A stretch of DNA of 28,399 nt from a virus (Duplodnaviria; Caudoviricetes), in IMG/VR virus record IMGVR_UViG_3300012942_000110, positions 1-28,399 of that record, one strand, 5' to 3'. Under the pieces are notes generated by a model. That model saw only the letters and a list, made by a program, of their open reading frames with translations. It was not told the DNA's origin and did no database searches. Positions 1 through 17,995 of this stretch are shown here, piece after piece. Position 1 is the stretch's first letter; the number at the start of each line of letters is the position of its first letter. The position numbers and the translations under genes were made by a program.

Positions 1-157
1 CGTACGCCGTGACCGTGCTGGAGTCGTACGCCCTGACCGTGCTGGAGCCGTACGCCGTGACCGTGCTGGAGCCGTACGCCCTGACCGTGCTGGAGTCGTA
101 CGCCCTGACCGTGCTGGAGCCGTACGCCGTGACCGTGCTGGAGCCGTACGCCGTGAC
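1..157. repeat. 24-bp tandem repeat, at least 6.5 copies (cgtacgcc[g/c]tgaccgtgctggag[c/t])
   Basis: Units start at 1, 25, 49, 73, 97, 121 and 145 (partial); only two variable positions. Confidence 0.97.
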
Positions 158-277
158 GGACTTGTCCTGATTATCCGAGATGGTGAGCCAAACCCCGGAA
201 GGCGACTCGATGCTGATTTCCGTGACGCGCTTGTTGCTGAGAGCCGCGTCAAGCTCTTCCTGAGTGGTTACCTTCAT
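1..277 (-). CDS. Octapeptide-repeat (SSTVTAYG-type, probable beta-solenoid) phage protein, truncated by the window edge
   Basis: My translation from ATG at 277: MKVTTQEELDAALSNKRVTEISIESPSGVWLTISDNQDKSVTAYG(SSTV[T/R]AY[G/D])n; open to position 1; not in the ORF track. Confidence 0.8.
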   Translation of the reverse strand, partial: MKVTTQEELDAALSNKRVTEISIESPSGVWLTISDNQDKSVTAYGSSTVTAYGSSTVRAYDSSTVRAYGSSTVTAYGSSTVRAYDSSTVTAY

Positions 278-278
278 G

Positions 279-319
279 CGGGCGGCACGGAATCGAACCG
301 TGCTGCAACCATTCGCCCG
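279..319 (-). ncRNA. tRNA-like minihelix 1 (acceptor-like stem plus T-arm, no anticodon arm)
   Basis: Minus strand: CGGGCG-AATGGTTGCA-GCACGG-TTCGATT-CCGTGC-CGCCCG; canonical T-loop, 6+6 = 12 stacked bp. Confidence 0.7.
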
Positions 320-320
320 A

Positions 321-481
321 GCGCTATGCCGTGCGCCAACGTCCAGACGTGTTGCACATCTCGTCTGCCTCTGATGCCCCATGCCGCGGGCCGCGTCCAA
401 CCGTGTTGCTCAGCCCGGTTGCCTCATTGGTGCTGATTGCCGCTGCACCCGCGTCCCGGAGGTTGCTAACCATCCGGCCTC
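321..481 (-). ncRNA. Array of three two-hairpin structured RNA units (429-481, 376-425, 321-371)
   Basis: Each unit is GAGG-stem-12 nt loop containing GCAAC-stem-GACG, then 2-3 nt, then stem-loop containing CGGCA-stem; stem sequences differ but pairing is kept in all three. Confidence 0.7.
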
Positions 482-590
482 TCATATGTCGCAGTCCCTC
501 CGCACCACACCCGGTATCGGTCGCGTCTGCCGTTATTCGTCGCCGTTCCCCCGCATTGGCCTTGGGTGGTCGTGGGGAGGGCTATATCAG

Positions 591-631
591 CGCCTGATGC
601 CGGAATCGAACCGGCGTTGCCAGGTCAGGCG
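591..631 (-). ncRNA. tRNA-like minihelix 2
   Basis: Minus strand: CGCCTGA-CCTGGCAAC-GCCGG-TTCGATT-CCGGC-A-TCAGGCG; 7+5 bp; includes the TGA stop of the xis-like gene. Confidence 0.7.
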
Positions 632-822
632 GCGCGCCTCTTGCGGGGCCGCGGAAGATGCGGGTTGGCCTGCGCGGCAGCCATGCGCTCGATCACGTCA
701 TCGGGAAAGCGCCACTTATTGCCGACCTTCACGGCACCCGGAATCTTGCCGTGCTTCGCGTACTGGGAAACCGTCTGCTCAGTGCACGCAAGCGCGACGG
801 CGAGCTGGGCGGTGGTCATCAT
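625..822 (-). CDS. MerR-like/HTH_17 DNA-binding protein, putative excisionase
   Basis: MMTTAQLAVALACTEQTVSQYAKHGKIPGAVKVGNKWRF fits the excisionase-type winged-HTH pattern; ATGA overlap with the upstream gene. Confidence 0.8.
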   Translation of the reverse strand: MMTTAQLAVALACTEQTVSQYAKHGKIPGAVKVGNKWRFPDDVIERMAAAQANPHLPRPRKRRAA

Positions 823-1034
823 CGGCTCGCCTCCACGTCCGCTTCGATCGCCCTGTAGAAGTCGTACGGGTTCGCCCCGTAGTTGTCGCGGAGCTTCATC
901 GCGGCACCAACACCGATCTGCGCGACGTTGGTGAGGCGGATGCCTGTTGATTTGAGAAGGTCTGCGAGGTCTTCGCCGTTGGCGTCAGCTACGTTGCTGA
1001 GGTATTCGGCGGTTTTCGCTGATCCGTTGTCCAT
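819..1034 (-). CDS. Cro-like small DNA-binding protein (first early gene)
   Basis: 71 aa, divergent from the repressor, HTH-like segment EDLADLLKSTGI; called mainly from position. Confidence 0.6.
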   Translation of the reverse strand: MDNGSAKTAEYLSNVADANGEDLADLLKSTGIRLTNVAQIGVGAAMKLRDNYGANPYDFYRAIEADVEASR

Positions 1035-1224
1035 GCAGATATGGAAGCACGTCTATTTGGACATTGCAAGCATGACATTGATGTAATTTGTCCTCGCTTT
1101 GGAGGACCGTGATTGTCGGCTAGACACAAGCGAGTCGCGCGTGGATCTCGCGCGCGTTCACACAAGCCTCAAGGTTTCGTCAAGCCCCTGGGAGATTCCG
1201 CCAATTGGACGCTATTTTGTGTCC
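1035..1224. promoter_or_regulatory. Divergent cro/repressor control region with candidate operators and leaderless promoters
   Basis: AT-richer intergenic. Near-palindromes GTCTATTTGGAC (1051-1062) and CGCCAATTGGAC (1199-1210), plus TGTCGGCTAGACA (1114-1126). TATTTT at 1213-1218 lies 6 nt before the repressor ATG; TTGCAA at 1064-1069. Confidence 0.55.
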
Positions 1225-1485
1225 ATGACGAAACGCGAACCGGAAGCTCTCGCCATTGGCGACATACTCCGCGAGAACGCTGAAGAGCAAGGCAAGACGC
1301 GAGCCCACCTGATGAAAGTGGCCGGCGTCAGCAAAGCCGCCCTCGAGCGCTACCTCGGCCTGCCGGGTCGCACGAGCATCGACGAGCGGCGCGAGATACC
1401 GCTAATCGCGGCAGCGCGACTGGCCACCGACCTGCGCCTCGACTTCAATTGGCTGCTTGACGAAGCGAAGCGCAGAGCGCAGTAA
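1225..1485 (+). CDS. Immunity repressor (XRE-family HTH), 86 aa
   Basis: MTKREPEALAIGDILRENAEEQGKTRAHLMKVAGVSKAALERYL...IPLIAAARLATDL; divergent from the cro-like gene; ATG 1225 preferred over the ORF-track start at 1099. Confidence 0.8.
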   Translation: MTKREPEALAIGDILRENAEEQGKTRAHLMKVAGVSKAALERYLGLPGRTSIDERREIPLIAAARLATDLRLDFNWLLDEAKRRAQ

Positions 1486-1603
1486 CAAGCTCCTCGAACG
1501 TCACGCCTGCGATGTCCGCCAACATTCTGCCTTGCTTGAACGTCAACTCCGGTGTTGCGTGGATGAACTGGACGGCTTTCTCAAGCCTGGCAGATGTCGG
1601 CAT
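1445..1603 (-). CDS. 52-aa small protein resembling the C-terminal helices of XRE proteins
   Basis: MPTSARLEKAVQFIHATPELTFKQGRMLADIAGVTFEELVTALCASLRQAAN; AAGGGGAA RBS just upstream; below the ORF-track cut-off. Confidence 0.55.
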   Translation of the reverse strand: MPTSARLEKAVQFIHATPELTFKQGRMLADIAGVTFEELVTALCASLRQAAN

Positions 1604-1778
1604 TGCTTTCCCCTTGAAGCGTGGGCGGTTCCGTGCGCCCTGATTCGAAGGTAGGTTGCATCGCCGACATTGAGAAGGTCGGATGGGCGCGTTCCCCTCT
1701 AAGTGGGGGTGAGACGGATCAGTCTCAATCGGTGTTGCTTCGGGCGCGTTGGCGTAACGGTGTCCCTATGTTTCGCTG

Positions 1779-2021
1779 GTGCCCGAGTCCAGGCGTTCCC
1801 GAGCGTTCAGAACCGCTGGTGTCATCGTTGATGCGATCCGGGAAGCGCAGCGCCGTTCGGGTATGACAGTTGACGAGCTGGCGCAGTCGATTGACGTTTC
1901 GCGGCGTCAGGTGCACCGCTATTGGCGTGGTGATGCGGTGATGCCGCTTTGGGTTGCGGTGGGGTTGGCGGATGCGTTGGGGGTCGATTTGGCGAAGGTT
2001 CTGCGCCGGTCGAGGGGCTGA
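1779..2021 (+). CDS. Second XRE/Cro-C1-type HTH protein, 80 aa
   Basis: IREAQRRSGMTVDELAQSIDVSRRQVHRYWRG...LADALGV is a classic XRE pattern; TATGTT (1767-1772) lies 6 nt before the GTG, suggesting a leaderless transcript. Confidence 0.8.
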   Translation: MPESRRSRAFRTAGVIVDAIREAQRRSGMTVDELAQSIDVSRRQVHRYWRGDAVMPLWVAVGLADALGVDLAKVLRRSRG

Positions 2022-2025
2022 ATTC

Positions 2026-2267
2026 GTGTTGGCGGCGCCAACACCGACCGTCGACGGTGCCCGAAAACCGGCGAAAATCAGAGGTTCCTGTGTTGCCGCG
2101 CTGATAGGCTTCGATGGTCGTTCTGCCCAGTGTTTTCTAGGGCGAAACGCCGATCTGATCTGGAATTCCAGAAAGGGTTCAAGTCCCTTTTCCCGCACCC
2201 TGATACCCTAGTAATGGCGCGGAAGTTCGCTCCGCGTGTTGGCCTAAAGCCAACAACACGCCAACAC
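2026..2267. other. attP: core equal to a tRNA 3' end (2173-2199) with flanking integrase arm-type repeats
   Basis: AAGGG-TTCAAGT-CCCTT-TTCCCGC-A-CC is a T-arm, acceptor 3' strand and discriminator A (Leu-like, inference). GCCAACAM motif at 2026-2033(rc), 2037-2044, 2236-2243(rc), 2249-2256 and 2260-2267. Confidence 0.8.
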
Positions 2268-2280
2268 GCTAGGAGATCCC

Positions 2281-2529
2281 ATGGTTGAGGGGTTCGTGCC
2301 AGACACAGACGACGTGCGCAATCGCTACGCCACGGTAGATTTCAGTACCTACGAAACGAGCGACGCGGATCTGGCGGAGTTCGACCGCTGGCTTACCAAG
2401 CACGATGCCGAAGTAGGCAAGCAGGCGCTGCTGGACGCGGCAGATGCGGCGTACTGGACGCTCGTGCAAGAGAAGAAGACGCTCGGGATGCCGACAGACG
2501 AGTGGCTTCGCGCGCGCGCCAATGGCTAG
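2281..2529 (+). CDS. Hypothetical phage protein (EFDRWL...WLRARA type), 82 aa
   Basis: AGGAG RBS at 2271-2275; overlaps the integrase start by 8 nt. Confidence 0.75.
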   Translation: MVEGFVPDTDDVRNRYATVDFSTYETSDADLAEFDRWLTKHDAEVGKQALLDAADAAYWTLVQEKKTLGMPTDEWLRARANG

Positions 2530-3700
2530 CGTTCATCCGCGCAGGCTCTCGACGGGTGAGATTGCGTGGCGGGTGATGGGCCGTGCGGGCGGCAAGCAGG
2601 TCCAGAAATCGTTCGTCAAAGAGGATGACGCGGACGCGTTCAAACGGCTCGCTGACAGGCTCGGATGGTCGAACGCAGTTACGACATGGGAACGCCGCGA
2701 AGGACGCGCCGAACCACTCACCTTGCGCGACTGGACACGCAAATACCTCGACCGCGAATCCGGCATCCTCACCGGCATCGAACCCATGACCCGGAAACGG
2801 TACCTGAGCATGGCCGAACGGTCATTCCTGACCTACCTGGGCGACGTGCCCCTCGACACGCTCCAACGCGAAGACGTCGGCGCGTGGATCGAATGGCAGG
2901 CCGAGCAGACGCACAAGAGTCCGCGCGGCCACAACAAGCCGAAGATGTACAGCTCGAAGACGATCAAGAACATGCACTCGGTTCTGTCGGCGGCGCTCGA
3001 GGCGGCGAACCAACGCGACCTGATCCACAAGAACGTCGCCAAGGGTGCGCCCATCCCCCAGGGCCTCAAAGAAGAGCCGGTGTTCCTCAGCAAAGCCGAC
3101 TACTTCAAGCTGTACGAAGCGATGGACGACCGGTTCAAAGGGTTCGTCGAGTTCCTCGTTTCGTCGCAGTGCCGGTTCAGTGAAGCGACCGCGCTCGCCT
3201 GGGGTCACGTCAACACGGACAGCGAACCACCTACCGTCAACATTGTTCGCGCGTGGAAGCTGACCGGTGAGGGTCGCAAGAAGAAACTCGGGCCCCCGAA
3301 AACGCGCATGGGGCGCCGCACCATCGCGTTGTGGGATGACGTAATCGAGAAGATGGGTCCGCGCGGCGACCGCGACGAGTTCGTATTCACCGCAGTCCAA
3401 GGCGGACCGATCGACCAAGCCAACTTCTACGAACGCTACTGGACCCCAGCAGTCAAACGCGCCGGCATCGACCCGACCACTTCCCCGCACGATCTCCGTC
3501 ACACCGGCGCGTCATGGCTCATCGCAGACGGTGTGCCGCTCACGTTCATTCAACGGCGCCTCGGACACGAATCAATCCAAACGACGAGTGACACCTACGG
3601 GCATTTGCTCCCCGACGCGCACACGCGCATGGCCGCGAGCCTGCAAGGGACACTCACGCGCGTCGGCTTTGAACTGCCCGCTGTCGGCAGTGCCGGTTAG
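2522..3700 (+). CDS. int: Tyrosine integrase, about 392 aa
   Basis: Catalytic set CRFSE (R), PKT (K), HDLRH (HxxR), LGH and TYGH (Y); N-terminal arm-binding-like segment AWRVMGR...QKSF; start at ATG 2522 (MASVHPR). Confidence 0.96.
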   Translation: MASVHPRRLSTGEIAWRVMGRAGGKQVQKSFVKEDDADAFKRLADRLGWSNAVTTWERREGRAEPLTLRDWTRKYLDRESGILTGIEPMTRKRYLSMAERSFLTYLGDVPLDTLQREDVGAWIEWQAEQTHKSPRGHNKPKMYSSKTIKNMHSVLSAALEAANQRDLIHKNVAKGAPIPQGLKEEPVFLSKADYFKLYEAMDDRFKGFVEFLVSSQCRFSEATALAWGHVNTDSEPPTVNIVRAWKLTGEGRKKKLGPPKTRMGRRTIALWDDVIEKMGPRGDRDEFVFTAVQGGPIDQANFYERYWTPAVKRAGIDPTTSPHDLRHTGASWLIADGVPLTFIQRRLGHESIQTTSDTYGHLLPDAHTRMAASLQGTLTRVGFELPAVGSAG

Positions 3701-5950: not shown

Positions 5951-7040
5951 GTTGCGCCATTGCCGCCCACAACGCTGCCCCGTCGATCGTGATCCCGACC
6001 TCTTTCAGCGCAGCCGTCAGGGCGGTCTGAAGCTCGGCAGTGCTGATCGTCGGCGTACTGACTTTCGCCAACTGCGTAGTGATGACGGACGCGATGGCCG
6101 ACTCGACCTGCTTCGCGAGCGACGGCGCACCGTTGTACGCAGAGTCGGTGCCGTGCGCCAGGCCGATGATCTCGTTCTCCTGAGCGGTGGTCACCTTGAT
6201 CGCATTCGCGGTCTGGTCGCCGACGAGCTCGAAGTTGTACCAGGAGGTGACCTGGCCCGCGCCCGCGTTCGCGTACAGGATCTTCGACGGGTCACCGGAC
6301 GGGAGGTTCCAGTTCACCGCGAAATACTTCTTGGTCTGGGTGTTGTAGAACAGCCGTGCGCGCGTGCCGCGCTGAATGTCGACGGAGATTTGCTGAACTT
6401 CCGATGCAGACAAGTCGTCCTCCTGGGTGGTCGATGAGACGGTGACGACGGCACCGTTCGCGAGGGATTCGTCGAGTGGGCCGAGCGCGCCGATGTGCGC
6501 GACGGACGTGTACTGCCAATAGGTCCACGATTTCCAGTAGCCGACCGTGGGCACCTTTCCCGGCGAGCCGGTGTTCGCGCCATAGTCAGCGACCCACAGC
6601 TCTTGACCGGCTGCCACATTCGCGGACCAGTCCGCCGCTTTGGTGACGCTCGAGCTCATGTAGAGGCCGGCGAGGATGCCCGCGATGGACTTCGTCGTCT
6701 GACCGAAGGTGAGCGCGTTCGCCGGCGTGGCGTGCGGCATCGAGCCTTCGTTTTCGATGTCGTACCAGAGCTTGTCGGCGACGCGAGGTTGCGCGTACTG
6801 CAGGAACAGGCGCGCGTGCGCGGCAGGGTCGCCGGGCCCGTTGAACCAGTAATGGTCGATGCCAAGGCCAGCCGCGCGAGCGTTCGCAACGTTCGCGTCG
6901 TGGTCGGCATCCTTGTAGGTTCCCGAGTCCGCGCCGCCTGCTTTGATGACGGCACGCTTGACGCCGAACGCGAGAACCGACTTGAACTGGGCAACCGAGT
7001 AGACGCCCTGCCACCGGGACATGTCGATAACAGCAGTCAT
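5922..7040 (-). CDS. Endolysin, GH25 muramidase plus C-terminal domain
   Basis: IDMSRWQG, IKAGG, HYWF, WYDIE (DxE), LWVADYG and WQYTS are GH25 signatures. Confidence 0.92.
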   Translation of the reverse strand: MTAVIDMSRWQGVYSVAQFKSVLAFGVKRAVIKAGGADSGTYKDADHDANVANARAAGLGIDHYWFNGPGDPAAHARLFLQYAQPRVADKLWYDIENEGSMPHATPANALTFGQTTKSIAGILAGLYMSSSVTKAADWSANVAAGQELWVADYGANTGSPGKVPTVGYWKSWTYWQYTSVAHIGALGPLDESLANGAVVTVSSTTQEDDLSASEVQQISVDIQRGTRARLFYNTQTKKYFAVNWNLPSGDPSKILYANAGAGQVTSWYNFELVGDQTANAIKVTTAQENEIIGLAHGTDSAYNGAPSLAKQVESAIASVITTQLAKVSTPTISTAELQTALTAALKEVGITIDGAALWAAMAQHVSVTVGSK

Positions 7041-17967: not shown

Positions 17968-17995
17968 AAAAAACCCCGACTGGTTAGCCGGGGTT
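17968..17995 (-). terminator. Intrinsic terminator upstream of the major tail gene
   Basis: Minus strand AACCCCGGCT-AACC-AGTCGGGG-TTTTTT. Confidence 0.75.

Follow-up and report, generated by a model that had tools for sequence, protein, structure and literature searches.

Introduction

In 2021, put and EAR were the only RNA-based antiterminators counted besides conAn2 (PMC8191782). The put RNA of phage HK022 is a single V-shaped unit of about 70 nt whose two long stems meet at a fork with one G, stem I containing a triplex (PMC9378689); it binds the zinc-binding domain of beta' and suppresses termination. conAn2 is an intergenic RNA of 260-600 nt behind the first gene of its operon, requires the ConAn1 protein and sits in conjugation operons, and EAR is a single element in Bacilli (PMC8191782). 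In the cited parts of PMC9378689 and PMC8191782, the known RNA antiterminators act singly and none is named as a triple repeat. Two further kinds of structured RNA bear on what follows. STAXI units, which are pseudoknots with UUCG loops and have no assigned function, are small, usually repeated three times and found near integrase or DNA-handling genes (PMC2864571), and ANTAR targets are dual stem-loops with a short linker in actinobacteria (PMC8164766).

Here we analyse a non-coding element in a viral contig of 28,399 nt (IMG/VR record IMGVR_UViG_3300012942_000110; the whole stretch is called the window). Like put, the element is a non-coding two-stem RNA early in the lytic operon of a phage (PMC9378689), and it shares with conAn2 and EAR, which are cis-acting structured RNAs, a place behind the first gene or genes of a long operon (PMC8191782). 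Unlike put, it has three units of about 50 nt with a 12-nt first loop, a linker of 6-7 nt and a second stem of 3-5 bp, and its host is actinobacterial. The original prediction had likened the units to HK022 put, and that likeness held for the non-coding position in the early lytic operon but not for the anatomy (three units, short second stems, linkers and a 5' domain).

Genomic context

Judged by its genes, the window comes from a temperate siphophage, with endolysin, tail, capsid, portal and terminase genes all on the minus strand; every virion gene tested lies on the strand of the early operon, which runs leftwards from about 1034. The integrase matches that of Microbacterium phage Footloose at 43.6%, among the closest annotated proteins, the capsid matches Arthrobacter phages at about 50%, and Microbacterium phages supply 100 of the 109 matches to the excisionase-like protein. 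This is a temperate phage of soil actinobacteria, and we infer a host among the Microbacteriaceae or Micrococcaceae. The genes around the element are:

2..277, minus strand: next early gene, cut by the contig end, encoding a repeat-rich protein of phrog_15773 (function not assigned)
625..822, minus strand: HTH_17 excisionase-like gene directly upstream of the element (Pfam PF12728, E 2.6e-9; PHROGs excisionase/HTH)
819..1034, minus strand: first early-operon gene, cro by position only, encoding a 71-aa protein of no family and with no homologue
1225..1485, plus strand: divergent repressor-like HTH gene, start uncertain (weak HTH_31 match, E 0.003, below the cut-off)
2444-3700: tyrosine integrase gene

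The gap between the end of the excisionase-like gene (625) and the next start (277) measures 347 nt. The units had been placed downstream of cro, which needs correction: the adjoining upstream gene is the HTH_17 excisionase-like one, and about 140 nt of further conserved structure lies between it and the units. The genes upstream encode an HTH_17 protein and proteins of no family; in the conAn system the upstream protein is the processivity protein ConAn1. The divergent control region (1035-1225) contains short direct and inverted repeats that are likely operators. A stretch resembling attP and the 3' half of a tRNA lies upstream of the integrase gene (2160-2202); none of 201 genomes matched it with fewer than 2 mismatches. 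At the contig end, a 24-bp tandem repeat (1-160) gives an 8-residue repeat in the phrog_15773 protein, relatives of which are encoded at 24 viral loci in varied contexts.

Structure of the element

The three units, C, B and A, make up the 3' half of a larger non-coding element on the minus strand (631-321), whose parts and neighbouring helix T2 are given below in 5' to 3' order:

591..631, minus strand: T1, a helix of 7+5 bp with an internal loop on its 5' side and a 7-nt loop like the T-loop of tRNA
490..583, minus strand: 5' domain, made of P2/P3, P4 and P6
577-574/551-548, minus strand: P2, topped by P3
571-568/561-558, minus strand: P3, with hexaloop 567-562
543-539/527-523, minus strand: P4, with an 11-nt loop ending in CGGCA, as found in the second loops of the units
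516-513/506-503, minus strand: P6, with hexaloop 512-507
567-564 with 512-509, minus strand: predicted kissing-loop contact between the complementary hexaloops of P3 and P6
429..481, minus strand: unit C, with GAGG, stem 477-473/460-456 (C1), loop 472-461, GACG and stem 449-445/433-429 (C2); second loop of 11 nt containing CGGCA
376..425, minus strand: unit B, with stem 421-416/403-398 (B1), 12-nt loop, GACG and stem 391-388/379-376 (B2); second loop of 8 nt containing CGGCA
321..371, minus strand: unit A, with stem 367-362/349-344 (A1), 12-nt loop, GACG and stem 336-333/324-321 (A2); second loop of 8 nt containing CGGCA
279..319, minus strand: T2, a helix of 6+6 bp with a T-loop-like loop

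The three minus-strand units originally claimed are present as written (C 481-429, B 425-376, A 371-321), their stems contain Watson-Crick pairs only (C1 5/5, C2 5/5, B1 6/6, B2 4/4, A1 6/6, A2 4/4), and GAGG, a 12-nt first loop with GCAAC, GACG and CGGCA recur in all three. The six stems had been described as all different in sequence; this is so overall, but A1 and B1 have 4 of 6 pairs in common and the six are therefore not independent. The shuffling check that had been proposed was carried out with two descriptors, both composed after the units had been seen. With a descriptor of structure alone (two perfect stems and no motif letters) the mean was 36.8 single-unit starts per shuffled window, and a chain of three units arose in 0 of 40 dinucleotide shuffles; a motif-plus-stem descriptor found 3 units in the window and none in any of 1000 shuffles. 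The three-unit array is beyond chance.

Folding energies did not distinguish single units (z -0.70 to +0.87) or the whole element (z +0.81 and -0.14) from shuffles. When pairing was limited to 30 nt, stem probability exceeded 0.6 in 5 of 6 unit stems of the window and in 4 of 6 of a related contig, L238 (described below), and with unrestricted pairing most named helices stayed below 0.5. The named stems dominate only locally, and the fold would therefore need co-transcriptional folding, tertiary contacts or bound protein. The window stems fold on either strand, P3 and P4 contain mismatches, and the kissing strands of the window have an alternative extended helix that the energy model favours.

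The flanking helices folded with lower energy than shuffles (z -2.33 for T1 in the window, -1.97 in L238; -2.01 for T2). The 5' strand of T1 contains the stop codon of the upstream gene, and T2 ends one base before start codon 277, ahead of which there is no Shine-Dalgarno sequence; a cut at the end of T2 would yield a leaderless mRNA. No tRNA gene was found at T1 or T2 by ARAGORN, and T2 gave a weak Rfam tRNA-Sec match, scoring 15.5 bits where the threshold is 47. A build like that of T1 and T2 was also observed at 40-200 of another contig, the 120-kb phage contig L073, where two interrupted, tRNA-like helices with GGCA in the internal loops and T-loop-like loops stand in tandem.

Comparison with described families placed the element in none of them. 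Rfam gave no match to the window at gathering score, and at E up to 10 nothing credible in window 200-1300 and L238 1150-1693, self-cleaving ribozyme families included. A likeness of the first loop to the loop of the twister-sister ribozyme and to T-loops fitted A-type units only, had no Rfam match and was dropped. The STAXI reading was rejected, since the units have no pseudoknot in common and no Rfam match. The linker of 6-7 nt lies within the 2-25 nt that separate the two stems of ANTAR targets (PMC8164766), but the 8-12-nt loops of the element are not the hexanucleotide A1/G4 loops that such targets require in the cited part of PMC8164766, and this assignment was rejected as well. All five pairs of the first duplex of putL (A3-G7 with C15-U19) recur in the inner part of A1, and the two beside the loop, the best conserved of that duplex, are also common to A1 and B1 (PMC9378689); A1 is one of three stem types and the five-pair match may be chance. 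Pairing of the loop with a downstream strand, as in put, was possible over 3-4 bp in A-type units only, and no put-like pseudoknot was found among helices of at least 4 bp common to the window and L238.

Comparison between phages

A pattern scan of metagenome contigs returned 34 loci, 2 of which had the full first stem, namely the window's own contig (L209) and L238. In L238 a divergent repressor-like ORF, two small early genes and two further ORFs precede the element. Neither pair of first two early proteins gave a BLASTP alignment, the control region (1035-1225 in the window) is unrelated in sequence, and in a BLAST comparison of L238 with the first 1100 bases of the window only the element and T1 were in common, with 70% identity over 265 columns for element positions 573-327. 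The proteins at the excisionase position do not align, yet both have a basic tail closing in RAA (window 625-640, L238 770-783), a tail also found in P0003-P0005.

L238 carries three units as well, and across both phages units measure 47-53 nt, linkers 6-7 nt and second stems 3-5 bp. Unit C of L238 (1401-1451) retains GAGG, GACG and the entire second loop, with a wholly different C1 stem containing one G-U pair and two both-sided changes in C2. The A1 stem comes second in L238 (1458-1481) and the B1 stem third (1505-1528); both are identical in the two phages, so that the A and B first hairpins have swapped places, taking their respective loop bases and linkers along, and at the middle position the second hairpin has not moved. 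The claim of a kept first loop, which stood for the window, is narrowed by L238, where the 12-nt loop and GCAAC occur in the A and B units only and unit C has a 9-nt loop that retains GCA. T1 recurs at L238 1229-1266 as the same helix (78% identity over 41, one both-sided change), again over the upstream stop codon, with a 6-nt loop that lacks the T-loop A. T2 in its window form was not found in L238; the combination of 12-bp helix and T-loop is seen in window T1 and T2 and is incomplete in the loop of L238 T1.

The L238 order of A and B recurs independently as a joint in contigs of sequencing run X1, contigs of which match window 128 to 2500 without a difference. Run X1 also contains a third version, known in part from table rows and 30-base loose ends: a contig fitting 475-542 without the one bulged base of P6 (517). 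Read by eye, its loose ends give another unit C first stem and, in P3, a G-U pair where the window and L238 have a mismatch. L238 shares the assembly prefix of the window's contig and all versions apparently come from one sample, so the three are not independent samples.

Selection on RNA structure had been proposed from the six window stems, and L238 supports selection on single-strand structure through both-sided changes in six helices. Between the window and L238 such changes number 1 in the inner part of T1, 3 in P2, 2 in P6, 2 in C2 and 3 in the last second stem, at least 11 pairs besides the wholly different C1; within the 5' domain they affect 3 of the 4 pairs of P2 and 2 of the 4 of P6. 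The alignment of six units had 8 cells with both-sided changes, a number reached by 0 of 500 shuffles (MAFFT misplaced part of the second stem, of whose cells only 59% pair), and the two 5' domains had 5 such pairs, reached by 23 of 500 shuffles; slid controls were lower for both. The comparison comprises two whole versions and one partial one; covariation between two sequences is weak, and the structures had been derived from those very sequences. The four predicted kissing pairs, being invariant, show no covariation. The element is real, structured and multi-domain, larger than the three units originally noticed, with exchangeable tandem modules.

Two other readings of the array are touched by these comparisons. 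The units could be sites in DNA, either inverted repeats bound by protein or single-stranded hairpins in recombination or replication, for which the pure Watson-Crick stems of the window, foldable on either strand, the identity of A1 and B1 in both phages and the shuffled module order would speak. We consider this very unlikely, because the half-sites are not the same from unit to unit and change in pairs, the loops vary in length (12 against 9 nt), the repressor and cro-position proteins differ between the phages, and G-U pairs favour the mRNA strand (four G-U pairs; the opposite strand would be favoured by two A-C pairs). We also rejected a role as operators of the phage's own repressor. A small repetitive protein from a 53-codon ORF (485-324), which spans exactly the three units, opens with an ATG behind a G-rich run and holds units B and A in one frame, is almost certainly not the product: in L238 the ATG is missing and the A and B units, 47 nt apart, fall in different frames, first-loop differences alter amino acids, and no Pfam family matched. 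With no reading frame conserved between the window and L238, the ORF is largely refuted.

Distribution

Covariance models were built for the units (R1) and the 5' domain (R2), and pattern searches were run beside them. Among viral contigs, the unit pattern gave 61 loci, none with the full first stem; a pattern from the first loop to CGGCA gave 121 matches, none with both stems (15 of 64 parts scanned); the unit-C pattern found no unit in 56; and neither the long unit pattern nor the 5'-domain pattern, which the third version would escape, gave any. The element was absent from the loci of relatives of the first-gene and excisionase-like proteins, and no unit was found at 24 loci of the downstream gene family or in the early regions of Footloose, Gusanita, Hestia and MargaretKali. 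Genome contigs gave 0 of 9, blastn against annotated phages returned matches to the T-arm of tRNA-Thr, chance matches or nothing, and plasmids gave chance matches only.

Whole genomes were no richer. R1 found 0 in 18; the pattern matched in 2 of 18, unsupported by R1 or R2; short BLAST matches (1 of 21 and 18 of 401) were judged to be chance; and over 401 genomes the pattern gave 13 matches, compared with 16 in the reversed control. R2 matched in 3 of 151 genomes with scores of 21-22 bits, where the training sequences reach 121-142, and the one of these three that was checked lay antisense to a long ORF. The genome samples were small, with family- or order-level draws of about 20 genomes. Within the searched sequence, of up to 401 actinobacterial genomes, the element is rare; rarity is not absence here, because a diverged version escapes an exact pattern and the likely host family lies outside the coverage.

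Footloose (L086) has a 743-nt unannotated gap (6282-7024) in the same place of its early operon, after small HTH genes. The gap is hairpin-rich, with a T-loop-like hairpin near 6719, gave no credible Rfam match and no R1 or R2 match, and may be another large early-operon RNA.

Function

Our tentative working model is that the conserved element of about 270-310 nt is a cis-acting processive antiterminator of the put/EAR/conAn2 kind, these being the nearest to it in position and size. It would be transcribed from an early promoter near 1035-1100, its short hairpins would fold on leaving RNA polymerase and the kissing-loop contact would close the 5' domain. The invariant unpaired GAGG, GCA (loop 1), GACG and CGGCA (loop 2, also P4) may then offer a host factor or RNA polymerase contacts that recur along the element, occupancy would rise with three copies, and the loaded complex would pass terminators, Rho-dependent or intrinsic, in the early and late genes, which are long and co-oriented. 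In the window and in L238 alike the element follows the first small genes of the lytic operon. The local pairing probabilities at 30 nt fit with co-transcriptional folding, and the persistence of a 70% identical element beside unrelated flanking regulators argues for a partner from the host rather than one specific to the phage.

We rejected a conventional intrinsic terminator or attenuator, since no U-tract follows the element and there is no terminator-like site on the minus strand of 1-2500. The antitermination reading is itself weakened by the repeats, by the single copy in the sequence covered (neither the arm with repressor and integrase nor the stretch ahead of the late genes has a second), by the few terminator-like sites of the late arm and by the tRNA-like helices. 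Terminator-like sites numbered 6 on both strands of the late arm, which is the part that the count covers, the remaining early operon lying beyond the contig; shuffles gave 14.8, and one of the sites was strong. The only strong intrinsic-terminator-like site on the minus strand (17972-17995) lies just upstream of the major tail gene and offers a natural test terminator for the antitermination idea.

The T-loop-like helices at both ends of the window element suit a processed RNA at least as well. CsrB-type RNAs titrate protein through GGA loops, and the element could likewise be a small RNA cut from the early transcript that serves in trans as a multivalent decoy, its seven or so hairpin loops displaying GCA or CGGCA and titrating an RNA-binding protein or defence factor of the host; protein-binding RNAs were the alternative raised in the original prediction. 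The modules repeat with their loops fixed and their stems free, as in such a decoy, the A and B first hairpins exchange places between phages as if their order were immaterial, and the 12-bp T1 and T2 that bracket the window element are possible sites for RNase P or Z. We nevertheless think a decoy unlikely: L238 lacks T2, and its T1 lacks the T-loop A, no partner gene is evident within the window, and the loops are unlike GGA or ANTAR motifs.

The same helices could instead belong to a platform for mRNA processing, stability and translation, which we consider distinctly unlikely. T1 would form only once ribosomes had cleared the stop codon of the upstream gene, and cuts at the tRNA-like helices would part the regulators from the early genes that follow. 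Downstream mRNA would be protected against 5' decay by the hairpins and GAGG, and would begin at 277, leaderless, if a cut followed T2. In both phages the 5' strand of T1 includes the stop codon despite different upstream genes, and T2 ends one base before a start codon that has no Shine-Dalgarno sequence, as this proposal would have it; in L238, however, a Shine-Dalgarno sequence of the ordinary kind is present and the next gene lies about 110 nt beyond the last unit, GAGG followed by C is a weak ribosome site, and the invariant loops are left unexplained.

The C4 RNA of phage P1 and the CI RNA of P4 are structured early-operon RNAs with a tRNA-like helix that may be processed. An antisense immunity RNA of this kind, whose loops would pair with target boxes in the early transcript and so end it prematurely, would share with our element the early-operon place, a tRNA-like helix at the 5' end and complementary loops, which here lie within the 5' domain. 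It is highly improbable all the same, as no loop has a complement of at least 7 nt in the early transcript within the window, loop matches of 6-9 nt in L238 are not at homologous places, and no Rfam C4 match appeared at E up to 10; a C4/CI RNA proper was rejected for want of conserved complementary target boxes within the contig and of that match.

Discussion

Our literature search found no description of this element, the motif supplements of Weinberg 2010 and 2017 being outside its scope. We regard the element as undescribed, and motifs in those supplements that have no Rfam family could bear on this. How actinobacterial temperate phages transcribe long co-oriented genes with no evident N- or Q-like protein is poorly understood, and the search found no paper on how they achieve such read-through.

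Going beyond the antitermination model, the element might represent a new RNA-only, modular class of antiterminator in actinobacterial phages, in which a kissing-loop 5' domain and exchangeable modules would load on RNA polymerase or on NusA, NusG or Rho with no phage protein. We think this unlikely; if true, it would be the first such RNA-only antiterminator for actinobacterial phages. Its known helices, invariant loops and natural module swaps make this compact element directly testable by reporter. An antiterminator would provide a new tool to express long operons in actinobacteria, and, should the RNA prove to be a decoy, its ligand would reveal a host RNA-binding factor that these phages must neutralise.
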